Counted from the stretch's first letter, positions 2,255 through 38,571 are shown. The stretch: 64,000 nt of DNA from Candidatus Acidiferrum sp. (GCA_035541055.1 DATKNZ010000220.1:3992-67991); one strand, 5' to 3'. Numbers and translations: made by a program. Notes: a model not told the origin generated them from the letters alone.

Positions 2255-2270
2255 GTGCAGACGTCTGCAC
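2255..2270. repeat. Palindrome copy P1, perfect GTGCAGACGTCTGCAC
   Basis: Intergenic, 5 nt after the stop of 1224..2249, at the left edge of low-GC island A. Confidence 0.95.
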
Positions 2271-2371
2271 GGGAGTAAATGGGCGTGGGATTTCGCGGGG
2301 TTGATCGACAGGGGACGCAGCGCACAAGGCTCTGGCACTCAACGGATTGCGCGTCGGATTTGCATTCCTGC

Positions 2372-2453
2372 TATACGAACCAATGGTCCGTGCTACCCTT
2401 CCGTTCACGTTAACGTTTAGGGGTTGACAGTTTCGCGGCAGGGCCGATAAACT
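2372..2453 (+). promoter_or_regulatory. Promoter/operator module copy 1 (rightward)
   Basis: 10-bp palindrome ACGTTAACGT (2407-2416), TTGACA (2424-2429), 18-nt spacer, TAAACT (2448-2453). The whole block is duplicated in inverted orientation at 32501-32582. Confidence 0.6.
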
Positions 2454-2460
2454 ACGCGCT

Positions 2461-2538
2461 ATGAAGGTCTTGGCGCGTCCCGCCGGGGTCCGTGATTTAC
2501 GAACCGGTGGACTGTATAATCAGGTTAGCCTGAAATGA
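2461..2538 (+). CDS. Possible 25-aa leader ORF (MKVLARPAGVRDLRTGGLYNQVSLK)
   Basis: Starts ~7 nt after the predicted -10, and its stop overlaps the ATG at 2535 (ATGA). The N-terminal MKVLAR.AGVR...TG.L.NQ is shared with the leader ORF of module copy 2. It could equally be a conserved non-coding leader. Confidence 0.3.
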   Translation: MKVLARPAGVRDLRTGGLYNQVSLK

Positions 2539-2972
2539 GCGGCGCCAAGAAATGGCTTTGGGTCAGGATCGGCATCGTTGCCCTCGGTGCGTTGTCAGGC
2601 ATTGAGATGACATCTGCTGACGCCGTGGCCAAGTCTAATATTGATTGGCTCGCCTGCGCGGTTCTGCTCGGCGCTGTCCCGCTCATGCTCCTGGCCGTGA
2701 TCGGCTTCCAAGCTCGTAATCCAAGTTCTGCTCCCACTTGGAGGCGGCCCTCGTGGTGCATCAATCCCTTCCTCCCAAGCGAGCCTCTTCAGTTCTTCCA
2801 TCTCGCCGCGTTTGCTTTCATGGCGGGTGGTTTCGTCGGCGTCGCCACGCTTCCTTTCCGTGGAGTTTCCGCAGCACCACTGGCCGCCTCGCTGCTGTCC
2901 GTTGGTGCTGGCGCCTGGCTCGGCATTCACTTGAGTATGAAGGTATGTCGGAAGAAAATGGAGGCGGGCTAA
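2535..2972 (+). CDS. Small integral membrane protein (about 4 TM segments)
   Basis: 145 aa with hydrophobic segments (WLWVRIGIVALGAL, ACAVLLGAVPLMLLAVIGF, FFHLAAFAFMAGGFVGVA, LLSVGAGAWLGI). First gene of island A. Confidence 0.6.
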   Translation: MSGAKKWLWVRIGIVALGALSGIEMTSADAVAKSNIDWLACAVLLGAVPLMLLAVIGFQARNPSSAPTWRRPSWCINPFLPSEPLQFFHLAAFAFMAGGFVGVATLPFRGVSAAPLAASLLSVGAGAWLGIHLSMKVCRKKMEAG

Positions 2973-3068
2973 CGAGGCGATGCACCGAATGAGCGGCTAT
3001 CACGTCATTTCCAGATTCGGACGCCCAGGGTGGCCTCTCATCGGTGATCTTGATCGTTGGGCCGCTCT

Positions 3069-3503: not shown

Positions 3504-3621
3504 ACCCCGGCCCAACCCGGCTGGTGCAGTGGACGCGCCGATAGCGTCTCTGCTTGTTTTCGCAGGCCTTGGGCGGCGCGCCACTGAGCAGCACCGTTGG
3601 GCGATCGGTAGCAAATTGCGT

Positions 3622-4284: not shown

Positions 4285-4401
4285 GTCACAGCCCAACCAG
4301 AGCATTGAGCCAACCGGAGGCAGCCGGTCTTCGTCTGCATTCCTGGCTCAGTGGTGGCTGCCTCCGGTGGCTCATGCTCGCCGTTCGGCTGGGGTGCCGT
4401 T

Positions 4402-5353: not shown

Positions 5354-5401
5354 CCAGATCACTGGAGCGGGCGGACCACGTTTGTTGGTGATTCGGGAGC
5401 C

Positions 5402-5866: not shown

Positions 5867-5875
5867 AAGGCAAGA

Positions 5876-6430: not shown

Positions 6431-6464
6431 CCGGATCACGACAGGAGGGAACAAAGAGGGGGGA

Positions 6465-6680
6465 AACATCCAACATCCAACATCCAAGGATGAAGACCAG
6501 TTCATTACAGAAGGAAACGAAGGGAACGAAGCGCGGGGCCGACGCGGATGGCGTGCAGACGTCTGCACGAGGCGTCGGAAGGGGGGGAGCGTGGAGCGTG
6601 GAGCGTGAAGAGGCGCAATAGCCAATCGCCGATAGCCGATAGCCAATAGCCGATAGCCGAGGGACGAGGGACGAGGGGGG
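6465..6680 (+). repeat. Composite repeat cassette C2 (contains palindrome P2 at 6553-6568)
   Basis: AACATCC x3 (6465-6487), GGATGAAGACCAGTTC (6488-6503), ACAGAAGGAAACGAAGGGAACGAAG (6507-6531), perfect GTGCAGACGTCTGCAC (6553-6568), GAGCGTG x3 (6587-6607), ATAGCCR/ATCGCCR x6 (6618-6658), GAGGGAC x3 (6659-6680). Confidence 0.95.
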
Positions 6681-6777
6681 AAAAGATTTTTCATTTTGTT
6701 GTTGCGAAGGGGGGCGAAAGATGAGTGATGAAGGGTAATCGCCTCAAAGGAGAGCAGCCGGACCTCATGAACTATCT

Positions 6778-9428: not shown

Positions 9429-9442
9429 GCCACCCCAACCCG

Positions 9443-11239: not shown

Positions 11240-11363
11240 AGCGTGGAAGCGTTAAAGCGTAGAGGCGGTGAAGCGAACGAAACCGGAAAACGTGCAGACG
11301 TCTGCAAGAGGCGGGTGGAGGGTTGAGGGAAATAGCCAATCGCCAATCGCCGATAGCCGATCC
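11239..11363 (+). repeat. Composite repeat cassette C5 (contains palindrome P3 at 11292-11307)
   Basis: AAGCGTNN octamers x5 (11239-11278) starting at the stop codon, GTGCAGACGTCTGCAA (11292-11307), GTGGAGG GTTGAGG (11315-11329), ATAGCC/ATCGCC x4 (11332-11358). The ATG at 11369 follows. Confidence 0.95.
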
Positions 11364-13354: not shown

Positions 13355-13792
13355 ATGTCACCGGACCTCGACTATATCCAGTACCGGCTGGCGCTGGCGC
13401 TGCAAGAGGCGGGCAGCGACGTGACGGTGCGCTGGATTGACACGGCGGGAGGGACGCTGGACGTGACGACCGGGGCGGTGGTGGGCGGCGTGCAGACGCC
13501 TGCAAGCGGCGTGCTGCGAGCGCTCGGGGTCGAGGAGCTGGCGCGGTCGGTGGTGCGCCAGTACGCGGAAATCCAGGCCGGCGACCTGCTGCTGGAGATT
13601 GACGCGGCGGCGCTCATCACGAAGGACGATGGCTCGACGGTGTGCCTCGATGACCTGGACGGGCCGAGCTTCCTTTGGGGCGGACAATGGTACCAGCAGA
13701 AGGAAGTGGGGGAGGGGCTGGCGGCGGCATGGAACGCGGTGGTGGGGAACCAGAGGCTTTACCGGACGCTGCTTTTGCGGAGGGGGAGTTGA
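13355..13792 (+). CDS. Hypothetical head-tail joining region protein (145 aa)
   Basis: ATG ORF with size and position typical of head-closure/adaptor proteins. Contains palindrome P4 in-frame. Confidence 0.5.
   Translation: MSPDLDYIQYRLALALQEAGSDVTVRWIDTAGGTLDVTTGAVVGGVQTPASGVLRALGVEELARSVVRQYAEIQAGDLLLEIDAAALITKDDGSTVCLDDLDGPSFLWGGQWYQQKEVGEGLAAAWNAVVGNQRLYRTLLLRRGS
13490..13505. repeat. Palindrome copy P4 (GTGCAGACGCCTGCAA) inside CDS
   Basis: Read as V-Q-T-P-A in ORF 13355..13792. Confidence 0.85.
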
Positions 13793-18178: not shown

Positions 18179-18221
18179 GAATAGCCGATGTGCAGACGTC
18201 TGCAAGGGCTGGGTTGAGGGG
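18179..18221 (+). repeat. Mini cassette C10 with palindrome P5 (18190-18205)
   Basis: gaatagccgat GTGCAGACGTCTGCAA gggct GGGTTGAGGGG, at the right edge of island B. Confidence 0.9.
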
Positions 18222-22200: not shown

Positions 22201-23973
22201 CTGGAGGGGCAGATCAAAGCCACGGGCCGCGTACCGGGCTTCTGGCAGACGTTCGCGACTGTAGCGCGGACCAACAGCGGCATGAGGGTTTGGGACTCCG
22301 AACGGCTGAAGCTGCTCTACGAGACACCTTACGAGCGGGGCACGGAGGAGTTCCAGAACAAGGTGCAGGAGCTGCACGGGCAGGCAGAGTCGGCCGCGCT
22401 CAAGGCACGGTTGTTCGAGACGGTGGGCACGGCGCTGCCCGGGGCGATGCGGACCAATCCCGAGATGGCGCGCTCGATGGCCCGGGCGGCCGGGTCGGAG
22501 ATGAGCGCGGCGGACGCCCAGCGCCTAAATGAAATGATGACGGCGGGAAACACGGGCGGCGTGCGGGACCTGCTCAACGTGCAGACGTCTGCGGCGAAGC
22601 GGCAATCGGCGGAAGCGGCGGCGGCGGAATTGGCCGAGCGCGACCGGCGGGCGGCCGAGGCGAAGGCGCAACTCGCCAAATACGACGCGGACATCCAGAA
22701 GGCGCAAGGGCCGAACGCGACGGAGAGGGAAAAGGCCGGGCTGGGGCAGCTCATCCAGGCCCGCGAGGAATTGACGCGATCCATGGACGCCAACACGGAA
22801 GCGCGGACGCGGGCGCTGGCGGCCATCGAGGAGGAGCTGGGCAAGACGGAGCAGGCGCTCTGGATCAAGCAGCAATACGTGGACCTGCTCAAACAGCAGG
22901 AGATGCTGATGCAGAACGTGGGGCAGCTCAGCGAGCAAGGAACGCCCGAGTCGATGGGGTCGCGGCTGGATGCGCGGGTGGGGTCGCTGCGGGATGAAGT
23001 GGCGCTATTGGAAGCCCAGCGGGACCGGCTGGAGCAGCACGCCAAAGAGCTGGGCACGCCCGAGGCCGAGCAGGCCAAGGACGCCGTGCAGAAAATGCTG
23101 ACCGAAAAGCAGGGAGAATTGGCGGCGCAGAATTCGCCGCAGTTGCGGCAGCTCGCGGCGATTTACGATGCGCGGACGATTGCGGCGCATCGGGCGCAAA
23201 CGGACGTGGCGGGGTGGGCGGTGGGGCCGACGGAGTCGCACCGGCTGTTCGCACAGGAGGCCCGCATACGGGAAGAACTGGCGGCTGCCCGGGCGCGGCA
23301 GGCCACGGGCGGGCTGAGCGATGCCGAGGCGACCCGGGCCAAGCAGCTCGAAGTGGACCTGACGCGGACGCAGGAGCAGATCCAGACGCGCATTGTGGAC
23401 CTGGCGCGGCAGGAACGGCAGATCCGCATGGACTCGCTGCGGGAGTTCAACAAGGGAATCCTGCTGGCCGGCCCGGGGGAGATGCTCCAGCGGCTGCAAG
23501 TGAGCCAGATGCTCCACCGGCAGGTGACGCCGGGCGAGTTCTTCGCCATGTCGCCCGAGGTGCGCCGGATGTATTTCGAGGCGCGGGGCGGCGACGCGGG
23601 CATGACGAACCGCTGGGAGCAACGCGAGATGGCCCGGACGGGGCATCGGCGCTGGAGCGAGCCGATGGACGAGGCCGTCCACGCGGTGGCCCGCGAACAG
23701 GTGGACCGCTGGGGGGCGGTGCAACGGCGGAACACGCTGGGCAGCCTGACGACGCTGCCCGACATGCCGCTGCCCTCGCTCAAGGAGGCGCGGCAACTGG
23801 CCGACAGCCTGACGCTGATGAACGGCGGGGTGCTGACGGTGACCCAGGCGCTGGCCAATCTCTCCCGCGTGGTGGACGCGCTGAACCATCGGTTTGGAGG
23901 GGGCGAGCCGCGGGCGCAAGGGCGGCGGTTTGATGTGAGCGCGGGGTTTGCGCCGGGGGCGCCGGGGTTCTGA
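19282..23973 (+). CDS. Tail tape measure protein
   Basis: 1563 aa, Ala/Gln/Glu/Arg-rich and helical. Tape-measure core-like segment (LGLTRRQVGEATKASLTAANVAHM...GRTGQTGIIVGNTLKNIFTQF). Follows the chaperone pair. Confidence 0.85.
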   Translation: MSESGSPILTESIKLDIQTPKQTGLEKLLEQLDQVAIAARQANKALAGMEQQGQPKFASIKGLTKDIQELQKGIGGRALSLSLPDLSKAYGLHLKAFKDFLAERDDLFNKSTFRKGAFSGAPSAAAAIFAFDNQSIARRKKLLADALTPTVSSVQGIKLGKTGKVALDVAGAQVEARLVGKVQLAVPAEQVVTAPAAGRTDARPSPRAKPAARIADSQSPIAKVPGAGVQASVEGPIKLVIPAAQIQASVEGMITAAAATASGGVVRDAKTGKFVSTGGGAGTSTSTRTRTSTGTSKALGGLNVGPQAGEFERRRIEDARTGRVRETVARRDASGAIVEETWDNAYDAFKVARTTSRSVTGISPLQQFRTIRTLNEEVYRQMVGALPAHDKVGRGFGTSLAMTQQANALEGIFTAHPELAAALGPQQAGKLQAILSAQAATLRARAGAVSEDATQAYVKMLDQAEERRSKRSVSTQEKALRMSGGQAGHAMHMAEGEAKIYELQTPDVYRSGATKAHYFGLKAQGADQAAAIIQSALAANPRASADLRREMTEKMEEHLLNARIFRAAGGVAPGARPATGEYGRFLAGLKAFTPMGMLANTTKVTGWAAAVTVLYKSVELARYSLGRFIEVGEETARLDVVFRKVGGSTQELTGDILKLASANARDAAQAMDSATEWSRLGLTRRQVGEATKASLTAANVAHMKPEETTKQLSTLMHVFELDATELNGVMGMLTATSQRYNVTLEDLFSGLDRSAATAKAAKVSLGELQALIAVMVGRTGQTGIIVGNTLKNIFTQFSNPTMQRYLRVRGIETMATEGENMGQLKSGSQILRDVFVRYSGMKPAEQADLSRNLAGRLQVGRFQSLMEGYADAQKLAVDSQLKLNAAQEANTRILGTLKAQLTALRVEWDRMMMTAGQSWGPWAAEQVRYGKNILRSINAGGEVESPRTIYLRKQGLVPSSEQEAAERAAARRWLEGQIKATGRVPGFWQTFATVARTNSGMRVWDSERLKLLYETPYERGTEEFQNKVQELHGQAESAALKARLFETVGTALPGAMRTNPEMARSMARAAGSEMSAADAQRLNEMMTAGNTGGVRDLLNVQTSAAKRQSAEAAAAELAERDRRAAEAKAQLAKYDADIQKAQGPNATEREKAGLGQLIQAREELTRSMDANTEARTRALAAIEEELGKTEQALWIKQQYVDLLKQQEMLMQNVGQLSEQGTPESMGSRLDARVGSLRDEVALLEAQRDRLEQHAKELGTPEAEQAKDAVQKMLTEKQGELAAQNSPQLRQLAAIYDARTIAAHRAQTDVAGWAVGPTESHRLFAQEARIREELAAARARQATGGLSDAEATRAKQLEVDLTRTQEQIQTRIVDLARQERQIRMDSLREFNKGILLAGPGEMLQRLQVSQMLHRQVTPGEFFAMSPEVRRMYFEARGGDAGMTNRWEQREMARTGHRRWSEPMDEAVHAVAREQVDRWGAVQRRNTLGSLTTLPDMPLPSLKEARQLADSLTLMNGGVLTVTQALANLSRVVDALNHRFGGGEPRAQGRRFDVSAGFAPGAPGF
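19881..19981 (+). repeat. Cassette-like block embedded in-frame in the tape measure ORF (with palindrome P6 at 19966-19981)
   Basis: GGACGCTCGCCC (19881-19892), ATAGCCR/ATCGCC x4 (19921-19947), GTGCAGGCGTCTGTAG. Translated as TDARPSPRAKPAARIADSQSPIAKVPGAGVQASVE. Confidence 0.9.
22579..22594. repeat. Palindrome copy P7 (GTGCAGACGTCTGCGG) inside tape measure
   Basis: Read as V-Q-T-S-A. Confidence 0.85.
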
Positions 23974-24001: not shown

Positions 24002-24077
24002 GAAAACGACCAGAGACAGCGTTGCGACGTGTGCAACAGCAAACCACTACAGGACGTCTGTAAGACCTATACGACCT

Positions 24078-24475: not shown

Positions 24476-27337
24476 ATGAAGATGCAGCTTGTGTATGACG
24501 GGGTGGACCTGGCAGGGCTTGCGAGCCAGTTCCGGGTGCTGGGGGTGTCCACGGTGCGCGAGCCGGTGGAAGCGCCGCAACGGGAGCGGGTGACAGTGCG
24601 GGTGCGGCTGGACTTCTTCGAGCAATCCTACGCGGACAACCGGACGCTGATCGAGCAAGTGCGGGCGGCGCTGACGACCCAGCAGGTGCAAATGGTCTGG
24701 ACCGACGAAACGGGGCAGACGCGGCTGCAACGGACGGTGACGGTGGGCAACGATGACGAGGACGAAGGGGCGGCCCAGCGCGGGGGCACGTACTGGCAGG
24801 GGCTGTCGCTCTCGTTCTGGTACTACAACCACGATATCGCGGCCAACTGCCTGGGCGGGAGCGTGGCGGGCGAGGACCTGGGGGCGGTGGAGAAGTGGAC
24901 CGAGACGGTGCAGGTGCAGCGGTTCGACGAGTTGAAAGACCCGCGGCGGCGGGTGACGGTGCAGATCAGCGCGAGCGGGCGCTGGCAGGCCGATACGTCG
25001 CAGGCCCTCGACACGCGGCGGCAGGCGCTGCTGGAGCAGGCCCAAGCGTTGCAGGGGGCGCTGGTGGCCGAGGCACACGTGGAGCTGGTGTTCGCGGGGC
25101 TGGAGCGGACGGTGCGCATCACGGACGCGAAGGTGGAGATTGACCAGCCGCATAACGCGATTGCGTGGTCACTAAACTGCTACTACACGGCTTACCCGAA
25201 TGAACTGAGCTACCGGCTGTGCGATTTCCGCGTGGCGCTGCGCGAGGCCAAGGTGGAAGCAGTTCGGTACTGGTCGTTGACGGGGAAGATCGAGGCGGAC
25301 TCGGAGGCCTCCGCCCGGGCCAAGCTGGCGCTGCTCAAAGGGGCACTGCTGCCCCGCGGCTATATGCCCTGGAACGAGAGCACCGACGCGCGGACGGTGT
25401 CCAGCGAAACGGGGGACGAGACAGACGGGCAGGCGTTCGTGGAGTTGAACTTCACGCTCGAGTACCGGGAGCAGGGGGCCATGGCGGCGACGTTCCAGCG
25501 GACGGGCGCCGGGGCGGCGAAGCTGGACTTCGGGACGGTGGACGGGTTTGCCGATCGGTACCAGACGACGCTGTTCGATGACTTGCGGTCGGCGCGGCGG
25601 CGGACGGCGGGCAACGTGAGCATGAAGGGGAAGTGGTTCGCGCCCGAGTCGCCGAGCGACACGGACCGGACGGCGGCGCTGCTGGCGACCAAGGCGAGCT
25701 TTGACGCGCAGCTCCAGAAGGGCGTGGTGGGGACGCTGCAATATGGGGCGGCCTTCGGCCCGACCGTGGTGCGTGTGCTGGACTTCAACTGCGACGTGAA
25801 CCGGGCGCGGTGGTGCGTGGAGTGGAGCCTCTCGGCGGGGTTCACGCGGTTTCCGAACGAGGCGGATTACGCGCTGTGCGAGTTCACGTGCGCGACGAAC
25901 GAGCAGAAGGAAACGGGGGTGGTGACCTTCACGATGAGCGGGCGGATCGGCGCGCCGACGCCCGAGGCGGCGCAGGCGAAGCTGGCGCGGCTGCAGGCGC
26001 AACTGGTGCCGGGCGGTTTCGTGCAGACGCATGCAGAGTCCTCCGACCAGCGGGTGCAGGCGGAGAGCGACACGAACGCGGGGCAGAACCCGGCGGCCGA
26101 TACGGGCGACGGGCTGACCTACATCGAGCTGCGCTTCTCCAGCGCGTGGCGCAAGACGAGCGGGGACGTGGTGACGTGGTCCTTGCGGCAGGTGGACGCG
26201 GACGACGTGCGGACGTGCATGATCAACACGACGTTCAGCGGGATGGTGCAGGCGAAGGGGCCGGACGCGGCGACGGCCTTCGGCACGGCCCTGGCACAGG
26301 CGGCGACGCTGGGAGCGGGGAAGTATCCGTTCTTCCTCCGCAGCAACATCACGCAGAGCCAGGTGCTATTCCTGACGAGCGGGGGCGTGGTGTTTGTGAC
26401 CCTGGAGTTCAGCTACGAGTACCAGCGCAAGGGGACGCGGATCTACCTGGAGGTGACGAGCGAGCTGAACGTGGACACGTTCGGCAACACGACCGAGACG
26501 GTGAGCGGGTTTGTGACCGCGCCCACGCTGGCCGTGGCGGGGCAGGCTTACGCGGGCATCCGGGGCGGGGCGAGCTACGCCACGGCCGTAGTGATGAGCG
26601 AGCGGACGCCGACCGTGTCCCGGCAATCGTTGCAAAGCGCGCCCGGGGTGGAGAGCGCGGGGGTGGACGAGCGGTATGCTTTCTCGTTCCAGGTGCTGCG
26701 GCCCTATGGGCAGCTCTCGATGGAATACACGCTGGGGGTGGAGAGCAACCTGCAAACGCTGGAGAAGCATTCGACGGTGAAGGGCGTGGTGCGGGCGGGC
26801 AACCAGGCGGCGGCGCAAGCTTACCTCAACTCGTTCCTGAGCGGGCTGGCCCTGGGCAAGCTGCTGGACAACAACGCGGAGCCGGAATTCCGGCGCGGGC
26901 CTAAGCCTAACGGCGCGGTGGCGGAGATCTTCACGGGGCTGCGGTTCAGCTACGCCTACGTGGACCTGCTGACGGGGACAGGGCTCGGCATTCTCGAATG
27001 CGAGATCACCGAGGACGTGCTGTACAGCGGGGACCGGCTGGTGGTGAAGGCCATACCGGACGGGCCATCACTGGTGCAGCGGTGCGGCAAGCGCGAGGGG
27101 CGGCGGACGGTATCTGCGCGGGCGGTGGCCACGACGCAGACGGCCGGCACGACCTGGGTGGGCCAGAAGCGGACGGAACTGATGGAAGGGGACTACGAGG
27201 AGCCGGTGCGGGTGACGACGGTTTACAAGTTCCTGCCGCAGACGGTGGGTGTGGCGCAGGGGGCGGGGGCGAACGTGAAACTGTTCGAGGTGACCATGCA
27301 GGCGAGCGAAGTGCTGCCGGATTATGACTATGAGTGA
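24476..27337 (+). CDS. Large tail-tip/distal tail structural protein with internal tandem modules
   Basis: 953 aa, first large ORF after the tape measure. About 8 divergent ~110-aa modules, each containing a G-x-[IVW]-x-A...A-x-A-[KY]-L...L segment. Confidence 0.55.
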   Translation: MKMQLVYDGVDLAGLASQFRVLGVSTVREPVEAPQRERVTVRVRLDFFEQSYADNRTLIEQVRAALTTQQVQMVWTDETGQTRLQRTVTVGNDDEDEGAAQRGGTYWQGLSLSFWYYNHDIAANCLGGSVAGEDLGAVEKWTETVQVQRFDELKDPRRRVTVQISASGRWQADTSQALDTRRQALLEQAQALQGALVAEAHVELVFAGLERTVRITDAKVEIDQPHNAIAWSLNCYYTAYPNELSYRLCDFRVALREAKVEAVRYWSLTGKIEADSEASARAKLALLKGALLPRGYMPWNESTDARTVSSETGDETDGQAFVELNFTLEYREQGAMAATFQRTGAGAAKLDFGTVDGFADRYQTTLFDDLRSARRRTAGNVSMKGKWFAPESPSDTDRTAALLATKASFDAQLQKGVVGTLQYGAAFGPTVVRVLDFNCDVNRARWCVEWSLSAGFTRFPNEADYALCEFTCATNEQKETGVVTFTMSGRIGAPTPEAAQAKLARLQAQLVPGGFVQTHAESSDQRVQAESDTNAGQNPAADTGDGLTYIELRFSSAWRKTSGDVVTWSLRQVDADDVRTCMINTTFSGMVQAKGPDAATAFGTALAQAATLGAGKYPFFLRSNITQSQVLFLTSGGVVFVTLEFSYEYQRKGTRIYLEVTSELNVDTFGNTTETVSGFVTAPTLAVAGQAYAGIRGGASYATAVVMSERTPTVSRQSLQSAPGVESAGVDERYAFSFQVLRPYGQLSMEYTLGVESNLQTLEKHSTVKGVVRAGNQAAAQAYLNSFLSGLALGKLLDNNAEPEFRRGPKPNGAVAEIFTGLRFSYAYVDLLTGTGLGILECEITEDVLYSGDRLVVKAIPDGPSLVQRCGKREGRRTVSARAVATTQTAGTTWVGQKRTELMEGDYEEPVRVTTVYKFLPQTVGVAQGAGANVKLFEVTMQASEVLPDYDYE
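26021..26036. repeat. Degenerate palindrome relative P8 (GTGCAGACGCATGCAG)
   Basis: Inside ORF 24476..27337, read as V-Q-T-H-A. The right half is imperfect. Confidence 0.5.
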
Positions 27338-27512: not shown

Positions 27513-27815
27513 ATGATGAAAGCTCTCCCCGAACTGAAGGCCCGTGCAGACGCCTGCAGGCCGGCGGTGAATAGCCAATCGCCGATAGCCCATAGCCGAA
27601 CGAATCCGCGGGATTTTGTTTTTCTGGATGCGCGGAGCCGGCTCTACCGGGTGCGGGAGGTGGAGGGAGCTTCCTGGCTTTACTACTGGCAAGGGGGCGG
27701 GTGGGTGAGCTTGCGGAAGCTGATGCCCGAGACGGCTCGCGGATACGCACTGCTGGCGCTACCCGCAGACGAGGCGGGGCGCTACGCCGGCGGGGTGCCT
27801 TTTCTTCCCGAATGA
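27513..27815 (+). CDS. Hypothetical protein (100 aa from first ATG); start uncertain
   Basis: ATGATG at 27513. The N-terminal 30 codons read through palindrome P9 and an ATAGCC array (ADACRPAVNSQSPIAHS). Confidence 0.35.
   Translation: MMKALPELKARADACRPAVNSQSPIAHSRTNPRDFVFLDARSRLYRVREVEGASWLYYWQGGGWVSLRKLMPETARGYALLALPADEAGRYAGGVPFLPE
27544..27597 (+). repeat. Cassette C14b: palindrome P9 (27544-27559) + ATAGCC-type x4 (27570-27597)
   Basis: GTGCAGACGCCTGCAG, then aatagcc aatcgcc gatagcc catagcc. Confidence 0.9.
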
Positions 27816-27858: not shown

Positions 27859-29994
27859 ATGAGCAAGATGAAACTGCTGGCGCTGTGCGATGCGCCGACT
27901 TTGACGTCGGGGTTTGCCCGGGTGGCGGCGAACCTGTTGCGGCGATGGTCGGCGGAGGCGGAAATCGATGTGTGGGGAGTGGGGTTTGTGGGGTGGGGTT
28001 ATGAGCGGGCGCCCTATGTGAAGCGGATGCTGCCGGCGGGGCCGGACTGGGCGACGCCGCAGAAGCTGCAATTGTTCCTGGCGCAGCTCAAGACGGGCGG
28101 CTACACGCATTTGTGGATGATGCAGGACACGTTCCTGCTGTCGCAGGAGGGTTTCCCGGCAGGGCTGCGGGGCGTGTGCCAGAGCAAGGGGATTCACTCG
28201 ACGCTGTATTTCCCGGTGGACGCGCGCCTGGACCCGGAGTGGACGGACATTATCGCGGCGGTGGATTGCGCCATCGCCTACACGGCTTACGGGGCGAGCC
28301 AGGCCAGCCGGGCCGGAAAGCAGCGTGGGCACGAGATCCATTGCGAGGTGCTGCCGCACGGGGTGGACACGAATGTTTACCGGCCGCTGGGCGACCGGGC
28401 GGAGTTGCGGAAGAAGCTCTGGACGCAGGAATGGGTGGGGCCGGATGACTTCCTCATCATCAACGTGAACGCGAACCAGCGGCGCAAGGACGTGACGCGG
28501 TCGCTGGAGGTGCTGCGGGCGCTCAGGCAACACGACGTGCCGGCCAAGCTATTGATGCACATGCCGGAAAGCTCGGCCGCGGGGCTGAGCCTGATGACGG
28601 TGGGCGAGCAGCTCGGGCTGGAGCCGGTGAAGGACTGGGGGCATAGCGAGCCTTATTTCCGGCGCGACAACGCGCTGCTGGGGGAGGAGGACCTGGCGCG
28701 GTTTTACAACGTGGCCGACCTCTACCTGACGACGAGCCTGGGGGAGGGGTGGGGACTGGGCATAACGGAGGCGCTGGCGTGCGGCTGCCCGGCGGCGGTG
28801 CCGCTGCATACCGCCTGCGGGGAATTGGTGGAGGAGCTGGGGGCGATGGTGAACGGGGGGATCGGCGGGACGCGGCTGCTGGGCCTGCCCATCGAGAAGC
28901 ACGGGGTGGTGTGCGACATGGATAATTCGCGGGTGCGCTACCGGGTGGAAGTGGAGGAAGCGGCCCGGCTGATCGCGAACTACTACGGCGGGTATGAGTG
29001 GAAGGAGCGCCCCGAGTTTCCGCAGATGGCGGAGCAATGGCTTTCGTGGGACCGGATCGCGGCGAAGATGCTGCGGCTGATGAAACGCCGGGAGGGGGCC
29101 CAGCCGTTGCCGGCGCTCTACCTCGAGTACGGGGGCGGGCTGGGGGACGTGCTGGACCAGTGCTTTTACCGGGGGAGCTACAACTACCTGGCGCGGCTCA
29201 AGCCGGGGCAGCGGGCCAAGGTGGCGATTATCTCGCACAACCCATTTGTGCCGGAGCTATTCCAATGGCACCCGAAGCGCGGCCAGATCGAGGTGGTGAA
29301 TTGCGGCTACTGGCACGGACAGGAGGCCAACATCCAGGGGCGACGCCGGTATAAGCTGCCGCCGGAGGGGGCGCTGAACCGGCTGCCGGACGCGCCCGCG
29401 CCCGACGATGTGCGGTTCTATCCGTCTCCCGAGGATGAAAAAGTGCTGAGCGAAATTTTCCCCGACGCGCAGCCGGAAACGCGGCGGGTGATCGTGCTGG
29501 CGCTGACGGCGGGGCTGCCGGACCGGACGATTCCGCTCGAGCTGGCGGCGCCGCTGGCCGACCAGCTCACGCTGGCGGGCTACCGGCTGGTGTTGACGGG
29601 GCGGACGTACGAGCGCCACGGGCGGCAGGAGGTGCGGTTTACGGCCGCGCCGGTGCCCGGGGTGATTGACGCGGTAGATCGCCTGAGCGTGCCGGGGGTG
29701 TGCGCGCTCGTGCAGGCGTCTGCAGGGCTGGTGACGGCGCACAGCGCGCTGAACCTGCTGGCGTGGCACCTGCGCAAGCCGCAAGTGCTGCTCTACCCGC
29801 GCTCCGCCTGGGAGCGGCATATCCGCAAGCCGGACCAGTGGGCGTTCGGCATCGGGTATCCGGAGACGGTGCATGGGTGTTTCGAGGACCTGACGGAGGG
29901 GCGGGTGCGCGAGTTGGGGCACCGATTCCTTGATCTTTTGGGCGGCACTCACAACGAGGTCGCCGCCCGGGCGGGCGCTACCGGTGGGCAGTAG
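27859..29994 (+). CDS. Two-domain glycosyltransferase (GT-B GT4-like N-terminal half fused to GT9/heptosyltransferase-like C-terminal half)
   Basis: N-half: LTTSLGEGWGLGITEALACGCPAAV (E-x7-E region). C-half: VIVLALTAGLPDRTIP...LAGYRLVLTGRTYE...SVPGVCALVQASAGLVTAHSALNLLAWHLRKPQVLLY, a GT9-like pattern. Confidence 0.7.
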   Translation: MSKMKLLALCDAPTLTSGFARVAANLLRRWSAEAEIDVWGVGFVGWGYERAPYVKRMLPAGPDWATPQKLQLFLAQLKTGGYTHLWMMQDTFLLSQEGFPAGLRGVCQSKGIHSTLYFPVDARLDPEWTDIIAAVDCAIAYTAYGASQASRAGKQRGHEIHCEVLPHGVDTNVYRPLGDRAELRKKLWTQEWVGPDDFLIINVNANQRRKDVTRSLEVLRALRQHDVPAKLLMHMPESSAAGLSLMTVGEQLGLEPVKDWGHSEPYFRRDNALLGEEDLARFYNVADLYLTTSLGEGWGLGITEALACGCPAAVPLHTACGELVEELGAMVNGGIGGTRLLGLPIEKHGVVCDMDNSRVRYRVEVEEAARLIANYYGGYEWKERPEFPQMAEQWLSWDRIAAKMLRLMKRREGAQPLPALYLEYGGGLGDVLDQCFYRGSYNYLARLKPGQRAKVAIISHNPFVPELFQWHPKRGQIEVVNCGYWHGQEANIQGRRRYKLPPEGALNRLPDAPAPDDVRFYPSPEDEKVLSEIFPDAQPETRRVIVLALTAGLPDRTIPLELAAPLADQLTLAGYRLVLTGRTYERHGRQEVRFTAAPVPGVIDAVDRLSVPGVCALVQASAGLVTAHSALNLLAWHLRKPQVLLYPRSAWERHIRKPDQWAFGIGYPETVHGCFEDLTEGRVRELGHRFLDLLGGTHNEVAARAGATGGQ
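29710..29725. repeat. Palindrome copy P10 (GTGCAGGCGTCTGCAG) inside the glycosyltransferase
   Basis: Read as V-Q-A-S-A. Confidence 0.85.
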
Positions 29995-32679: not shown

Positions 32680-32693
32680 GTGCAGACGTCTGG
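32680..32693. repeat. Palindrome copy P11 (GTGCAGACGTCTGG)
   Basis: Intergenic, at the outer edge of module copy 2. The right end is truncated. Confidence 0.8.
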
Positions 32694-32707
32694 ATGGGGC
32701 TGGGTGT

Positions 32708-33292: not shown

Positions 33293-35925
33293 AGGCTGGA
33301 CCATACATCGGAGTTGGTGACGGTGGCGAAGCGGGCGCGGGCGCGCAGCTTCCAGAGGGGCGGGGCGGGGTCGGGCGGATCGGGTGGGGGTGCAGGCGTC
33401 TGCAGGGCTTCGACGGTGAAGGCGGCCAGGGGGTCGTGGCGGTCGGGCGCGGATGAGATAGCCGATCGCCGATAGCCTATAGCCGAGGGAAGGGCAGAAC
33501 CGCGCAGGTTGGAGGGGAGCATGGCGGGCGGGCGGATGGTGATGAACTCGGGGGCCAGCCGGACGGGCCGGGCGACGGCGGCGGGCAGGTCAATCCACTG
33601 GCGCCAAGCGTGATGCAGGCGCTGGCGCAGGGCGGGCCATTGGGACCGGAGCGCGTCCTCATCAATGGTGGCCTCCCGGGCGTTGAACTCGCGGCGGGCG
33701 ACGTGGAGCAACTCGGCGAGGTTGACTTCCTCGGTGCGCTCGCCGATGAGGCGGCCATCCAGCACGAGCTCGGAGGCGTCGGCTTTCTCCTGCACGAGCG
33801 ACTCCAGGCGCAGGTCGATGGTGCCGGGACAGACGACGACATAGACGTTGACGGGCTTGACCGAGTTCATGCGGTGGACGCGGTCGAGGGCCTGCTTGAA
33901 CTTGTCATAGGCCCAGGAGTAGGCCATCAGGATGACATTATTGGCAAGGTGGAAGCTGTGGCCTTCGGCCATGCACTCGACGCCGGCCAGCATGACGGGG
34001 ATGGAGGCGTCATTGCGGCGGCCCTGCTTGAAGATGGCGGCCTGGTCGCCGCGGGACTTCTGGCTGACGCGGCCATCGAGCAGGACGTGGCGGACGTCGG
34101 CCTCGGAGAGCCAATGGGAGAAGTTGTCCAGCGGGTCGTTGAAGGCGCTGAACACGACGGCCTGCTCGCGGCGCTCAAGGATTTCGGCGATGAGGGTGAG
34201 GACGGTGGCGGCCTTGGGGACGTAGGGGTTGGTGGAGCGAGGCGGCAGCGGGACGGAGCCGCGGCCGCGGCAGACAGGGCAGGGGGAGGGGTTGAGGGTT
34301 GAGGGTTGAGAGTTGAGGGAACGGCAGGGGCACGTCTCCTCGGGTTCGCCGGGTTGGGGTTTCAAGTGGTCGCTGGAGGGGTCGGCGGCGGCGATGCGCA
34401 GGGCCTGCAACTGAGCGCCCACGGCGAGCTTGCCATTGACGTCGCGGTATTCGGCATCGAGGTGGTACTGGTAGACCTTCTTTTGGAGGGTGCCCATCTG
34501 GCAGCGGATGACCTTGCGGACTTTGGGGACAATGTCCTCGCCGGCGTCCTGCTTGCGGCGGCGGAGAATGATGGGGCCGAAGAGTTTCCAGAGGCGGTGG
34601 ACGTTGCAGACTTCGGCGGTGTATTTCCTGAAGCGGCTGCCGGTGGCCTTTTTGCCGTCGGCTTTGGCCTGCTCCTCCTTGCTGAGGTTGCGCTCGGTGA
34701 CCATGAAGGTGGAGGCGAAGCGCTCGCGCTCGGAGCTTTCATCGCGGTAAGGGAAGATGGGGGTGGCTTCGGCCTTGCCGCCGACGGCCCACCAGGCCAG
34801 CCGGAAGGCATCGGGCAGGCGATTTTTGACCGGGGTGGCGGTGAGCACCAGGCGGAAGCGCGGGTTGAGCGAACGGACGCCGCGCCCGACGATGGTGGTC
34901 TCGCCCTTCATCTTTACGCCCTCGTCCACAACGACGCAGTCGAAGGCGCTCCAGCAGAGATCGGCCAGGGACGGGGAATAGAGGCACTTCACATACCGCT
35001 TGGGGCGGGTGTCGGTCTCGGGTTTGGCGGGGTCGTAGCCCGGGGGCGGCTCGCCGATGGGGTAGGCTTTGAGCTCGCCCATGCCGGCGCTGTACTCGAG
35101 GATTTTGTCGGCGCAGAAGGCCCGCACGATCCAATCCTGCTGGCGACGGGAGAGGTCGGCGAAGCGGGTGTCCGGTGTGCGGCCGCAGAGGTTGACGAGG
35201 ACGGCGTGCGCGGCCAAGAGACGCTTGCGCTGGGCGGCGGCGGCTTTTTCGTCCCAGTGCCGCAGGGAATCGAGCCGCTGCTGGAGTGTGGCATCCAGCT
35301 CCTGGATGGTAGTGCGCGGCGAAGCGTGGAGGGCGTCAAATTCATCGGCCCACCTGACGGCGCGCCAGGCGAAGAAGGTGCAGACGTCTGCACACGGGGG
35401 CATCGGCGTGCCGCTGGGTTCGACGGGTGCGCGGTGGACGCCGATGGGCATGGCCAGCCAATCGAGCAGCGCGCATGGTTCCCAGTCCTCGGGGTCGGGC
35501 ACCGGGGCGACGCCATTGGTGGTGAGCTGGGTGTAACTGGTGATGTAGAAGCCAGGTGGGACGATGGGGCGGCCGGTCTCGTCGGTGTGGGTGAGGCGGG
35601 AGCCGGGCAGGCGGGTGAGCTGCTCGAAGGTCTGCTGGCTATCGAGCGGCTGGACGACGACGCCGAAGTGGGTGAAGGCCTCCTCGCGGATTTGCTGGTG
35701 GAGGTCGCCGGGGGCCACGATGAGCACGGGGAGGCGGGGGCGGAGGCGGGCGGAGGGTTGAGGATTGAGGGTTGAGGGTTGAGGGGGGCGGTCGAAGCCC
35801 ACCTTGAGCAGGGGCCATACGAACATGGCCCAGGTTTTTCCCAGGCCGGTGTCCCAGCCGAGGATGAGGCCGTCCTTGAGGGCGGCACGGGCGAGGTCTT
35901 GTCGTTGGAACGTTTTGAGTTTCAT
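33289..35925 (-). CDS. SNF2-family helicase
   Basis: DTGLGKT (motif I), VVVDEGVKMK (II), LVLTATPVKN (III), C-terminal helicase domain (VVFSAFNDPLD, VMLAGVECMAEGHSF, ALDRVHRMNS). Contains three in-frame repeat blocks. Confidence 0.85.
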   Translation of the reverse strand: MKLKTFQRQDLARAALKDGLILGWDTGLGKTWAMFVWPLLKVGFDRPPQPSTLNPQPSARLRPRLPVLIVAPGDLHQQIREEAFTHFGVVVQPLDSQQTFEQLTRLPGSRLTHTDETGRPIVPPGFYITSYTQLTTNGVAPVPDPEDWEPCALLDWLAMPIGVHRAPVEPSGTPMPPCADVCTFFAWRAVRWADEFDALHASPRTTIQELDATLQQRLDSLRHWDEKAAAAQRKRLLAAHAVLVNLCGRTPDTRFADLSRRQQDWIVRAFCADKILEYSAGMGELKAYPIGEPPPGYDPAKPETDTRPKRYVKCLYSPSLADLCWSAFDCVVVDEGVKMKGETTIVGRGVRSLNPRFRLVLTATPVKNRLPDAFRLAWWAVGGKAEATPIFPYRDESSERERFASTFMVTERNLSKEEQAKADGKKATGSRFRKYTAEVCNVHRLWKLFGPIILRRRKQDAGEDIVPKVRKVIRCQMGTLQKKVYQYHLDAEYRDVNGKLAVGAQLQALRIAAADPSSDHLKPQPGEPEETCPCRSLNSQPSTLNPSPCPVCRGRGSVPLPPRSTNPYVPKAATVLTLIAEILERREQAVVFSAFNDPLDNFSHWLSEADVRHVLLDGRVSQKSRGDQAAIFKQGRRNDASIPVMLAGVECMAEGHSFHLANNVILMAYSWAYDKFKQALDRVHRMNSVKPVNVYVVVCPGTIDLRLESLVQEKADASELVLDGRLIGERTEEVNLAELLHVARREFNAREATIDEDALRSQWPALRQRLHHAWRQWIDLPAAVARPVRLAPEFITIRPPAMLPSNLRGSALPSAIGYRRSAISSAPDRHDPLAAFTVEALQTPAPPPDPPDPAPPLWKLRARARFATVTNSDVWSSL
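33390..33484 (+). repeat. Palindrome P12 (33390-33405) and ATAGCC-type x4 array (33458-33484) inside the helicase 3' tail
   Basis: GTGCAGGCGTCTGCAG, then atagcc gatcgcc gatagcc tatagcc on the + strand. Read on the - strand as ALQTPAP and SAIGYRRSAIS. Confidence 0.9.
34291..34318 (+). repeat. GTTGAGG x4 array inside the helicase ORF
   Basis: gttgagg gttgagg gttgaga gttgagg. Read on the - strand as SLNSQPSTLNPSP, between CPC and CPVC. Confidence 0.9.
35378..35393. repeat. Palindrome copy P13, perfect GTGCAGACGTCTGCAC, inside the helicase
   Basis: Read as C-A-D-V-C-T. This is the only coding copy in a different frame. Confidence 0.9.
35757..35784 (+). repeat. GTTGAGG x4 array inside the helicase ORF (N-terminal region)
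   Basis: gttgagg attgagg gttgagg gttgagg. Read on the - strand as PQPSTLNPQPS. Confidence 0.9.
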
Positions 35926-36178
35926 GATGTGGGGCTGATGGATTTATGCAGGTTTAATAAAGGTTGCAGTTGCGGTGTGCGGTGAGCCGGTTACACTGAC
36001 CGCTGTTCTTTATATAGGCCATGAGCCGAACGGCCCGTGGCTGAGTCTTTGCAGTGCGAGGACTCGGATTTCTGTCTAAAACGGCCAAAGAATTTTCAGG
36101 AAATCCGCCTCGGCGCGCGAGCGATCGCGCGTCCTGGTGTGCTTTCCTGAAGGGCACTTGGCCGTGCCCGGACAGAGA

Positions 36179-36203
36179 GTGCGTCAGTGACGCGCCTTTT
36201 TTT
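36179..36203 (+). terminator. Orphan intrinsic-terminator-like hairpin + T7
   Basis: GTGCGT-cagtg-ACGCGC (6 pairs including one G:U), then C + TTTTTTT (36197-36203). No annotated + strand gene lies upstream. Confidence 0.35.
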
Positions 36204-36389
36204 CCCAGCCAACAGGTGTTGGTGGGGTGTCGTTAATGAGAAATAAAAGGCAGAAAGGTCCTGACGGACTACATCAATGGCGCCGGGCGAACCGCTCGCA
36301 CGCGCGGCGCAGGAAGCTCTGGAGGCAAGTGCCCTCTCCCATTTCGTTCTGCCGATCTGTTTGCCGCCAACGGCAAACAATTGAGAGCA

Positions 36390-37037
36390 ATGAAGAAACA
36401 GATCAGACAAGACATTCAATACATCCTACGGAATTCGTTCGAGTTTTTGGGCCTGACGCATCCAGCCGACGCGGACTGGCAGTCCGAGATCGCGCGGGCA
36501 GTGCAAGCGGCCAGTTGTGACAGCATCGGCACGAGGGCCTGTCCGCGAACGCGGGGTTCCCTGGCGCATTCGCTGGCCGAGATCGGGGCCGGCGCATACG
36601 CGTGGGACATGGGACTGAGCCCGCAGGCGGTGTGGGACGAGCGATTCGGCCAACTGCATGGGCTGCGGGAACTGGTGCCGTTCGACCGGTGGCTTTTGGC
36701 GCTGCACCCCGAGGACCGGCCGATGATCCGGCAGCACCTGGAGGCGCTGCACAAAGATCCGACGGCTGGAGACGTGTGGGACGTGCAATACCGTGTGGTG
36801 GGCGCCGACGGAAGCGTGCGCTGGCTGGTGTCCGTGGGACGCATCCAGCGGGACAAAGCGGGCGTGCCAATGCGGATGACCGGCATCGTGACGGATGTAA
36901 GCCATCGCCGCGGGCTGGAACCGCGGGTGACGATGGTCAGGCAATCGCCAGCGCGGCCTCCAACTCGTCCAGGCGGACAAGGGTCGCGCGATAAGCAGCC
37001 GGGTCCACGGCGGCGACGTCGGGCACCTCGGGGATAA
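36390..37037 (+). CDS. Stand-alone PAS-domain protein
   Basis: AYAWDMGLSPQAVWDERFGQLHG...LHPEDRPMIRQHLEAL...WDVQYRVVGADGSVRWLVSVGRIQRDKAGVPMRMTGIVTDVS is a PAS-fold pattern. The 3' end overlaps the convergent methylase gene by ~100 nt. Confidence 0.6.
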   Translation: MKKQIRQDIQYILRNSFEFLGLTHPADADWQSEIARAVQAASCDSIGTRACPRTRGSLAHSLAEIGAGAYAWDMGLSPQAVWDERFGQLHGLRELVPFDRWLLALHPEDRPMIRQHLEALHKDPTAGDVWDVQYRVVGADGSVRWLVSVGRIQRDKAGVPMRMTGIVTDVSHRRGLEPRVTMVRQSPARPPTRPGGQGSRDKQPGPRRRRRAPRG

Positions 37038-38571
37038 CGAAGCAGCGGACCAGGTCGGCGAGCGTGAAGTCCACGGCGCCGCGGTTATCGGCGGCGCGCT
37101 TGGCATTGGCGACGGTGGTTTCCTTGTCATCGCGCAGCCATTGGTCCATGAAGCTCCATTCCGGGGCGTCCTTATCCGGCCCCTCGGCGATAAGGAAGAC
37201 CAGTTCCTGGCCGGAGTATTCCAATTCCTCGAGGTCGCCGGTGAAGGAATTGGGCTTCTGGACCTGGCGGGTGAAGCTGATGGTCTCGGAGCGCAGAGGG
37301 TAGCGCTGGCCTTTGCGGAAGATGACCTTGTGCTGGTAAGCCAGGTCGGCCTTGCATTCGATGGTGTCCTCCTCATCCAGGTAGCCCAGGCGCTGGATCT
37401 CGGGCAGCGGGTAGAGCGGAGCGCGGGCCGCGTGATACTGGCGGATGGCTTCGCGCACGGCGGCCAGCAGATCGGGCTGGACGCGCCAGCCGGATCGCTC
37501 GGCGACTTCGAGCAGTTCATCGCGGGTGTTGCGCTGGATGACCAGGTCCATCGGGGTCTTGCCATTGAGGGCGAACAGGCGCTGGACCTGGTGCTTGTTG
37601 ATCCTGCTGCTGTGCTTTTCGAACAAGGAGAGGGCGGTGTGGATGGTGTTGTCGGAGGCCAGCCAGAGGTTCCAGGGCACTTTGACCTTGTTGCCAGCGG
37701 CTTCGCCCGCCTTTTCCTTAGCAGCGCTCCAGCACTCGACGCCGGCATGGTGGGCGAGCCACGCGTTGCGCAGTTCGACGCCCTGGCGCCAGGAGCGGTC
37801 GGGCAGCTCGGGCCAGTGCCACGTGTGCGGGCCGGCGGTATGCTCGCGGGCGAAGTAGAGCACCTCGGTCTGGAAGGAGTCGTCCTCCTGCCAGTTGCAG
37901 CCCTTGCGGGCGGTCATGGGGTTGCCGGGGATGATGAGCCGCGCCCATACGTGGGCGGCCACGGCGCCGTGCGGGGCGTCCTCGGCAAAGATCAGGCGCT
38001 CCAGGGTGTCGTGGTTGGCGATTAGGAGGCCCTCGCCATAGGGGGTGCAGAGGTCGAGCGCAATGAGCAGCATGGCGAGGGTGGAATCAATGCACTCGCG
38101 GGGGATGCCGCCGCCCTGCTCGATGCCCTTGAAGGCCGCCCGCACGGCGGGGAACTCGCTCTGGAGCAGGGCGGCCAGACGCGCCCGGTAGAAGAACAGG
38201 CGCCAGGGTGGATTGAGCACCCAGCAATCGGCTTTGAACCCGACCTCCCGGAGCCAGGCGTGGAGTTGGCAGGCGTCGGCGGTGATGCGGTTGAGCGGGG
38301 AGGTGCCGCCCTCGACGCGCTGGCCGTGGCAGGGGTCAATGTCCGCGCCGAGCAGCGTGACGGGCTTGCCCTCCTGTGCAGACGCCTGCAAGAGGTGGCC
38401 GGCCCCGCAATTTAAGTCTACGATGATCGGACGGACGGGGGCCAGCGGGCGGGCTAGCGTGCGGCCCAGGTCGGACGGGGTGAAGAATTGGCTCTGGCCC
38501 TTGTCGGCGGCGTTGGCGGAGGACTCGAAGAAGGGCTGGAGGATTTCGGGGGCGATTTGGGTGCGTTGCAT
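36937..38571 (-). CDS. N6-adenine DNA methyltransferase
   Basis: QFFTP, VDLNCGAGHLL (AdoMet motif I), VLNPPW (motif IV NPPW). 544 aa. Confidence 0.75.
   Translation of the reverse strand: MQRTQIAPEILQPFFESSANAADKGQSQFFTPSDLGRTLARPLAPVRPIIVDLNCGAGHLLQASAQEGKPVTLLGADIDPCHGQRVEGGTSPLNRITADACQLHAWLREVGFKADCWVLNPPWRLFFYRARLAALLQSEFPAVRAAFKGIEQGGGIPRECIDSTLAMLLIALDLCTPYGEGLLIANHDTLERLIFAEDAPHGAVAAHVWARLIIPGNPMTARKGCNWQEDDSFQTEVLYFAREHTAGPHTWHWPELPDRSWRQGVELRNAWLAHHAGVECWSAAKEKAGEAAGNKVKVPWNLWLASDNTIHTALSLFEKHSSRINKHQVQRLFALNGKTPMDLVIQRNTRDELLEVAERSGWRVQPDLLAAVREAIRQYHAARAPLYPLPEIQRLGYLDEEDTIECKADLAYQHKVIFRKGQRYPLRSETISFTRQVQKPNSFTGDLEELEYSGQELVFLIAEGPDKDAPEWSFMDQWLRDDKETTVANAKRAADNRGAVDFTLADLVRCFVIPEVPDVAAVDPAAYRATLVRLDELEAALAIA
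38376..38391. repeat. Palindrome copy P14 (GTGCAGACGCCTGCAA) inside the methylase
   Basis: Read on the - strand as L-Q-A-S-A, immediately after motif I. Confidence 0.85.

Follow-up and report, generated by a model that had tools for sequence, protein, structure and literature searches.

A recurrent 16-bp palindrome dispersed along a Candidatus Acidiferrum prophage and shared with phages that encode orphan ParB proteins

A dispersed palindrome in a prophage

We analyzed a 64,000-nucleotide stretch of a metagenome assembly from Candidatus Acidiferrum sp. (GCA_035541055.1 DATKNZ010000220.1:3992-67991; hereafter, the window), whose left 40 kb is a tailed prophage that extends past the left window end, and found that a 16-bp palindrome, GTGCAGACGTCTGCAC, recurs along this prophage. 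With up to three mismatches allowed, the window has 14 matches, all within positions 2255-38391 and three of them perfect (2255, 6553 and 35378; Table 1), whereas dinucleotide shuffles gave 0.46 matches on average and 3 at most. In our interpretation, the palindromes are probably an array of docking sites for a dimeric protein that recognizes this DNA sequence. That a ParB/KorB-like protein docks at the sites and silences, insulates or organizes the phage genome is a plausible, if not quite probable, extension by analogy with known systems; we infer both the presence of such a reader in this prophage and the effect of its binding.

At up to two mismatches, the phage part (positions 1-40200) has 12 copies against 0.015 expected. 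The 23.8 kb of host DNA has none (40201-64000 is empty at up to two mismatches and 38392-64000 at up to three), and the distribution, 12 copies in 40.2 kb of phage and 0 in 23.8 kb of host DNA, therefore differs from the host-wide spread of repetitive extragenic palindromic (REP) sequences and bacterial interspersed mosaic elements. An earlier reading of the window from sequence only had listed at least 13 copies, only in the prophage and with none in the chromosome to the right. Its coordinates were right and the absence from the host held; the restriction to the prophage is true within the window, but the word is widespread in other phages. A further relative that it had named, at 24049, is only weak and contains an extra central base.

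The sites are spaced more evenly than random placement would give (coefficient of variation of the gaps 0.43 vs 0.90, P=0.0015). Gaps range from 0.7 to 4.7 kb along the prophage, the largest being 4739 nucleotides where 8.8 kb was expected (P=0.0026), and this evenness holds regardless of gene boundaries. Six of the 14 sites are intergenic although intergenic DNA makes up 16% (P=0.015), and the other eight lie inside open reading frames (ORFs), in genes of both strands. The sequence-only reading had pointed to a shared coding frame, and this was confirmed: eight of nine coding copies, 35378 being the exception, are read GTG CAG ACG TCT GCA (V-Q-T-S-A; P=0.003), a frame, denoted frame 0, that gives small residues at the price of codons TCT and GCA. 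As a correction to that reading, 33390 and 35378 both fall in the minus-strand SNF2 gene; the plus-strand ORFs there are shadows by codon-position GC. The sites also bracket three low-GC cargo islands: 2255 and 6553, both perfect, flank island A, 18190 follows island B, and 29710 and 32680 flank island C.

Table 1. Palindrome copies and two minus-strand genes of the prophage right arm (window positions)
Position	Feature	Strand	Context or basis
2255..2270	Perfect palindrome		5 nt past stop of gene 1224-2249; borders cargo island A on the left
6553..6568	Perfect palindrome		122 nt past last island A gene; nested in longer inverted repeat (CCGACGC...GCGTCGG)
11292..11307	1-mismatch site		Follows 179-aa gene 10700-11239
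13490..13505	Coding copy, frame 0		Gene 13355-13792
18190..18205	1-mismatch intergenic site		Closes cargo island B on the right; gene 18307-18939 begins 101 nt further on
19966..19981	3-mismatch copy, frame 0		Inside tape-measure ORF; (ATAGCCR)n array 19921-19948 just upstream, also in frame
22579..22594	Coding copy, frame 0		Tape-measure gene 19282-23973
24049..24064	Weak relative (ACAGGACGTCTGTAAG), center longer by one base; doubtful member		
26021..26036	3-mismatch coding copy, frame 0		Gene 24476-27337
27544..27559	2-mismatch site		524-nt gap between 27337 and 27859, beside ATAGCCR array
29710..29725	Coding copy, frame 0		Glycosyltransferase gene 27859-29994
32680..32695	2-mismatch intergenic site, right end degenerate		Borders cargo island C on the right
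33390..33405	Coding copy, frame 0		Minus-strand SNF2 helicase gene 33289-35925
35378..35393	Perfect coding copy, other frame, read ADVCT		SNF2 helicase gene 33289-35925
38376..38391	Coding copy, frame 0		Minus-strand gene 36937-38571
33289-35925	SNF2 helicase, 878 aa	minus	Codon-position GC
36937-38571	544-aa protein, weak methylase-like match	minus	Pfam N6_Mtase E=0.002, 50 residues, below curated cut-off

Conservation of the sites in related phages

Relatives of the prophage were found through its capsid-like protein (416 aa, 8178-9428; locus tag VMU04_10160), on whose relatives capsid Pfam families were found. This search gave 56 metagenomic relatives, with capsid identity of about 38-78% for those compared; the capsid and tail proteins had no relatives in IMG/VR, and a capsid profile found none in GTDB genomes. 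Fetched contigs and loci are labeled here by L-numbers, and gene calls in the relatives are partly our own ORF calls, based on codon-position GC. Contig L002 extends the prophage leftward by 3.6 kb and adds one site, and L149 gives 5 kb from further left with two more.

A scan of related phages, as the sequence-only reading had advised, showed that the word recurs far above chance: relatives carry one to six sites at up to two mismatches against about 0.01 expected (for example, six in L011, five in L152 and four in L235 plus L015). In L004, L011, L013, L015, L017 and L022, which have the same gene order, a site also lies 0-80 nt past the stop of the gene that our ORF calls put in the place of the 179-aa gene, and the spacer around it varies. 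L004 and L011 further contain the copy inside gene 13355-13792, its flanks unchanged, and the glycosyltransferase of L235 also has a copy (L235:2451). Most sites are syntenic, in conserved genes or junctions and away from mosaic joints. Among the 53 sites of the lineage, 11 start 0-5 nt past the stop of a long plus-strand ORF, where 0.88 would be expected (P=1e-9), and six of these 11 read T(GA/AG)-c-GTGCAG.

L235 and L015 together represent one phage of about 30 kb, with the tail end, a glycosyltransferase, ten genes, a 467-aa gene and the capsid gene, and at least five sites. In L235:7499-9938, the 467-aa gene comes after genes for two proteins, one of 322 aa with a Walker A motif (GFSSGKT) and one of 290 aa, which look like a terminase large subunit split in two. 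Just upstream, a 63-aa basic protein has a palindrome copy within its first codons. The unassigned L235 genes ahead of these terminase-like genes encode proteins of 352, 251, 392, 199 and 63 aa.

Comparison of the 53 sites suggests which level of the palindrome is under selection. Positions 2-6 and 11-15 are conserved at 81-100% and the central CG is invariant, so that about 14 positions are specified. In stem pairs 2-6, 30 departures from the consensus pair were found, 12 of them G.U, 9 A.C, 8 other mismatches and only one a compensated pair, and wobble pairs were not favored on the transcribed strand. Since only one of the 30 departures is compensated, the two halves mutate independently. 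The palindrome is thus conserved as a sequence, which is the behavior of a double-stranded protein-binding site and unlike that of an RNA helix.

The same word in phages with orphan ParB proteins

A 15-mer scan of IMG/VR gave at least 120 loci and a scan of GTDB genomes at least 117. Among the matches listed, 95 of 120 IMG/VR loci contain the perfect 16-mer, and 102 perfect sites stand against 32 imperfect 15-mer matches, where chance would give a ratio of 1:6. The contigs carrying the word among these IMG/VR matches span 37-74% G+C, with hosts of several phyla, and the listed GTDB loci are mostly from Burkholderiales. Clustering of the neighboring ORFs yielded one dominant family, an orphan ParB (Pfam ParB_N and HTH_ParB) labeled 'ParB-like partition protein' in PHROGs. 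Over its N-terminal 200 aa, the family matches known structures of Spo0J, ParB and Noc (E=8e-29). It combines a CTPase N-domain and a helix-turn-helix with a GERRxRA box, a four-cysteine ribbon and a variable tail, the last frequently closing with WPFP. ORFs of this family were present in 24 of 120 IMG/VR loci and 24 of 117 GTDB loci among the matches listed.

The phage ParB has at least 569 relatives in IMG/VR, and we examined a set of 82 ParB loci, composed of the best 80 of these and two cultured phages. GTGCANACGTNTGCAC occurs in 61 of the 82 loci, and in 49 it lies inside parB itself, where it encodes ADVCT in the ribbon. The Ala codon of this in-gene copy is GCA in 43 of 48 cases, compared with 13.5% usage, and the codon before this Ala is likewise a rare one: 23 of 28 Ser codons there are AGT and 14 of 18 Gly codons are GGT, against 6-10% usage. 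These rare codons indicate that the word is held inside parB. The word also recurs in the gap after the capsid gene and, read VQTSA, in the variable tail at the C terminus of lambda-type TerL. The copy at 35378 of our prophage is likewise read ADVCT; a ParB-like ribbon in the SNF2 gene was considered and rejected, as this reading is a mere consequence of the frame.

The two cultured phages, VarioGold and Aval, carry a ParB gene (VG_p35 and gp06c, respectively) together with dispersed sites (six in VarioGold, at 5756, 15561, 21002, 29452, 31899 and 37753; five in Aval, mostly of the variant GTGCACACGTGTGCAC), and both carry integrases. VarioGold has a separate CI/Cro module, and its palindromes lie away from it. 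Both phages have one copy just after the major capsid gene in a longer stem (VarioGold, L148:5745-5790; Aval, L147:20622-20643). The VarioGold paper names the ParB gene and no palindrome, and a literature search for the 16-mer found no description of it in this sense. A comparison of ParB sequences with site variants was uninformative, as position 6 varies within single genomes.

At several loci, two or three copies of the word lie within 20-300 bp of each other (L245:2759-3072, L300:387-558, L270:6666-6703 and L038:3671-3746), with no ParB gene in the 5-8 kb fetched; hosts of such loci include an alphaproteobacterium, Nitrosospira and a Myxococcota metagenome-assembled genome. In each of two cyanobacterial loci, L242 and L265, about 1.9 kb separates two perfect copies. 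Also considered, and set aside because they have no DNA-binding domain, were the ParB partners of phage thymidine dioxygenases.

A ParB/KorB-like clamp as candidate reader

Because ParB is the only reader family linked to the word, a ParB/KorB-like clamp is the leading candidate for the protein that docks at the palindromes. The sites stand either just behind a stop codon or within a gene, there in the frame least costly to the encoded protein (V-Q-T-S-A). If the reader behaves as in ParB-parS, KorB-OB and BisD-bisS, each site would be a point at which a dimer loads and from which it spreads or slides, and the array, covering the genome in this way, would silence, insulate or organize it. Even spacing would let a protein of limited spreading range cover the genome, and the perfect sites bracketing island A, which bears a promoter, would suit insulation.

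The nearest known system is ParB-parS (Spo0J/ParB and Noc-NBS). The two are alike in having a 16-bp palindrome with central ACGT/CG and copies in coding DNA, including inside the phage parB, and the phage ParB aligns over its N-terminal 200 aa with Spo0J, ParB and Noc structures and has the GERRxRA box. The parS word, which we take to be TGTTNCACGTGAAACA, differs from the palindrome. The phage proteins are also unlike chromosomal ones in their extra four-cysteine ribbon and long variable tail, and no ParB was found in the window or the lineage searched. We saw no ParA, and the prophages are integrated (ours beside a tRNA-Leu gene), which makes a role in partition unlikely.

Plasmid RK2 has 12 OB sites, OB being a 13-bp word of a different sequence. 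Its KorB is a ParB-family, CTP-dependent sliding clamp that controls transcription at long range from a dispersed short palindrome (PMC11790492). The likeness is a short palindrome dispersed over a whole mobile element; the difference is that RK2 is a plasmid in which KorB has KorA and IncC as partners, and repression in the prophage is our suggestion. BisD of ICEclc, an orphan ParB-like protein, binds palindromes inside genes, spreads about 50 kb with a bias along transcription, and activates promoters together with BisC from two bisS sites of sequence GAGCTATCCCCnGGGGATAGCTC (PMC12409273). Unlike these two sites, the palindromes described here are of a different sequence, number at least 14 and are regularly spaced. 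In phage N15, a linear plasmid-prophage, SopB reads four scattered inverted repeats and acts with SopA in partition. Here too a ParB-family phage protein and inverted repeats scattered in a phage genome are combined, but the phages with our palindrome integrate.

Several results weigh against a ParB-type reader in this lineage. A ParB-family hidden Markov model had no match in six-frame ORFs of the window, L002, L004, L005, L010, L011, L013-L015, L017, L020-L022, L024 and L149-L154. When 47 proteins from the window, L002, L149 and L235 were aligned to the ParB profile with hhalign, the best probability was 14%. Pfam found nothing in the ten L235 genes between the glycosyltransferase and the capsid gene, and the approximately 30 kb of the L235/L015 phage, with its five or more sites, contain no ParB and no Pfam domain besides the glycosyltransferase. 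BLASTP between the lineage and the ParB phages revealed no shared DNA-binding or ParB-type family; the only hits were an integrase, a 66-aa ORF and one protein of unknown function. The tolerated bases differ as well. At position 6 of the half-site, the lineage has G in 90% of cases and the ParB phages in 58% (P=7e-8); at position 7, A makes up 65% in the lineage, the other 35% being G, and 86% in the ParB phages (P=2e-4). This difference indicates that the reader in the lineage is not the same protein as in the ParB phages. Finally, the stop-abutting placement of 11 of 53 sites is not predicted by a loading-site model and would fit a roadblock or RNA-level role equally well or better. The reader in our prophage would be either a diverged relative encoded in the left part of the prophage outside the window, an unrelated protein, or a factor acting in trans. 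The best hhalign match, the minus-strand ORF 17593-18066, was rejected as a regulator since its motif is GIY-YIG-like.

Alternative explanations

A doubtful but serious alternative is that the reader is unrelated to ParB, or that the sites act partly through RNA, and that they serve as a genome-wide 'punctuation', marks placed after stops or inside long genes and no more than about 5 kb apart. If so, the use of an identical word by the ParB phages would point to shared machinery, and the dispersed-palindrome array would be a general, undescribed feature of temperate phages.

Somewhat less likely are roadblocks of the stoperator type, as had been proposed from the sequence, in which a dimeric, non-ParB immunity repressor would stop RNA polymerase at gene ends, silence the structural operon and block read-through from the islands. 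Stoperators of cluster A mycobacteriophages (L5 gp71 and Bxb1 gp69) are asymmetric 13-mers that the immunity repressor binds to silence the prophage; tens of them are scattered over both early and late operons, for the most part in small gaps between genes and with a single orientation. The prophage resembles them in its many dispersed copies, with 14 sites over 36 kb of structural and accessory genes, and the abutment of sites to stops, their placement after islands A, B and C (with two perfect copies around A) and the failure to find ParB in lineage searches are also in favor. Mismatches to the palindrome are moreover polar: of 22, the right half has 19 and the left half 3 (P=0.0009), and 11 are at position 16, where the terminal C is lost. 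However, this polarity may be mutational: it is also seen in minus-strand genes, over which the plus strand stays G-rich, so that strand-biased loss of C is a sufficient explanation. (GC skew is strongly positive across 33289-38571 though the genes there are on the minus strand, which shows that the skew of the prophage is independent of transcription direction.) Neither a repressor gene nor an immunity region was seen, each site is a 16-bp dyad and not an asymmetric 13-mer, and the word is common to unrelated phages, among them VarioGold with its separate CI/Cro module; in ParB phages it tracks parB. The part of the proposal that the evidence favors is that of conserved, dispersed 16-bp dyads for a dimeric protein, at gene ends and island flanks; less favored is the stoperator form itself, as the only protein family linked to the word is an orphan ParB and not an L5-type immunity repressor.

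An RNA-level element is rather improbable. A hairpin after the stop would be a 3'-end stabilizer, attenuator, terminator or translational-coupling signal, perhaps with an RNA-binding protein, and this would account for the sites that abut gene ends. VarioGold site 5756, after the capsid gene, has an 11-bp stem followed by a U run and is a classic intrinsic terminator; in the window, 6553 (-24.7 kcal/mol, z -4.0) and 27544 (z -2.5) lie in longer hairpins, and the right flank of sites is often CTGCAAG(A/G)GG, which resembles a ribosome-binding site. On the other side, 11292 (z -0.9) and 32680 (z 0.0) fold no better than shuffled sequence, and neither a T run nor a terminator call was found for the window sites within 1-20000. 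One compensated departure in 30, with A.C as common as G.U, does not suggest an RNA helix. Eight of the 14 copies are conserved within ORFs on both strands, and the spacing is even whatever the gene boundaries.

We consider it still less probable that the palindrome is read by a host or shared factor, such as a host regulator of the LacI/GalR kind or a ParB from a co-resident prophage. LacI/GalR operators presumably follow the plan GTGnAAnCGnTTnCAC, whose geometry the 16 bp and invariant central CG would fit; the word occurs in two groups of phages that, by BLASTP, have no DNA-binding protein in common, and no reader was found in the approximately 30 kb of L235/L015. Among the proteins scanned, none had a LacI-family domain. 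The word is missing from the 23.8 kb of host DNA, rare codons keep it inside parB, and the breadth of hosts (37-74% G+C, several phyla) makes a single factor unlikely.

A similarly low, perhaps slightly lower, chance is given to recombination, with palindromes and heptamer arrays (see below) marking the joints of cargo exchange or with the palindrome as an insertion-prone unit. The sequence-only reading had offered a module-boundary role, and one observation agrees with it: two identical 18-bp palindromes bracket island A, while L011, which is without the island, has a single site there. Several sites are also preceded by TAGC, the start of the ATAGCC heptamer, and an array and palindrome block lies in frame in the tape-measure gene. 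This block (19921-19981) is translated ...ARIADSQSPIAKVPGAGVQASV..., third-position GC dips over it, and it looks like an intergenic-type block inserted into the gene. The role is weakly supported at best: most sites occupy conserved positions in conserved genes and junctions, off mosaic joints, relatives without heptamer arrays retain the palindromes, and no recombinase is linked to the word. The remaining suggestion, recognition by the 544-aa protein as a methylase or restriction target, has hardly any likelihood, as the half sites GTGCAG/CTGCAC and GACGTC and a weak, sub-threshold N6_Mtase match are set against a PDB search that gave no relative of this protein, about 14 specified positions where a methylase site has 4-8 bp, and the retention of the word in the approximately 30 kb of L235/L015, which show no methylase, and in VarioGold, which has no annotated one.

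Other features of the prophage and host DNA

The tape-measure protein is a 1563-aa ORF (PF10145 match), and a tyrosine integrase adjoins tRNA-Leu (40234-40320), indicating an integrated element. The right arm (SNF2 helicase, 544-aa protein and integrase) is coded on the minus strand by codon-position GC, and flanking host genes encode PSCyt1, PSCyt2, PSD1 and DUF1501 domains. Most other prophage proteins of the window had no match in Pfam and PHROGs, the tRNA was the sole match in an Rfam scan, and megablast of the phage half against cultured phages had no match. Between the SNF2 and methylase-like genes, and overlapping the latter, a plus-strand ORF (36381-37037) has a PAS_3 domain (E=5e-16) and may be a gene fragment. 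Behind the capsid-like gene, at 9442-9473, lies a strong but ordinary hairpin of 13 bp, all G/C (-32.6 kcal/mol); at this position VarioGold and Aval have the palindrome.

Island A (2424-6430) encodes DUF6678, a WapI-like immunity protein and a HEAT-repeat protein, and has a sigma70-like promoter at 2424-2453 (TTGACA, 18-nt spacer, TAAACT). An inverted copy of this promoter module was noticed by eye near 32520-32560 in island C. Island B contains the minus-strand ORF 17593-18066 with its GIY-YIG-like motif (GVYFIF...LLYVGKA) and an NHL-repeat protein (15984-16913) with a weak, sub-threshold PEP-CTERM match. In island C, the minus-strand gene 31492-32244 is a full-length match to the anti-phage defence protein PD-T7-4 (E=1.5e-83) and also matches DUF4145.

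Tandem heptamer arrays crowd the intergenic regions of the prophage (1095-33477), on the plus strand only, and none occur in the host part. Examples are found at 1179-1213, 6618-6659, 10608-10635, 13291-13318, 14838-14880 and 23975-24002. The unit (ATAGCCR)n forms 16 arrays, frequently reaching an ATG, and other units are (AACATCC)n, (GGAGCGT/GAAGCGT)n, (GTGGTGC)n and (GGAAACGAAG)n. Heptamers are partly present in L004, and L235 is without a perfect array of three or more copies. Such arrays probably explain breaks in short-read assemblies in this region. Separately, a 26-mer, GGGCTCGCGGGGACGCTCGCCCTCCC, occurs singly in the prophage (10650, 18449, 24383 and 27387) and as inverted pairs in the host (46818-46899 and 55610-55691); unlike the palindrome, it is a host REP-like word common to phage and host.

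Implications

Arrays of dispersed operators are known, as are ParB-like proteins that regulate mobile elements. We found no description of this exact 16-mer linked to a large phage ParB family, of a regular, gene-end-biased array such as that of this prophage, or of the word in a lineage where ParB was not seen. Orphan ParBs are common in phages and mobile elements, and their DNA sites and roles are mostly unknown; if the link is true, one 16-mer would be assigned to such a family by genetics alone, and VarioGold and Aval would be cultured phages in which the pairing of ParB and site could be examined directly. In the lineage described here, the word occurs at high, regular density and with a strong preference for gene ends in the absence of recognizable regulators. 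If the interpretation as docking sites for a ParB/KorB-like protein is true, these phages would possess a phage-wide system of silencing, insulation or organization of the KorB/BisD kind, and the palindrome would be a simple sequence marker for such phages in metagenomes.

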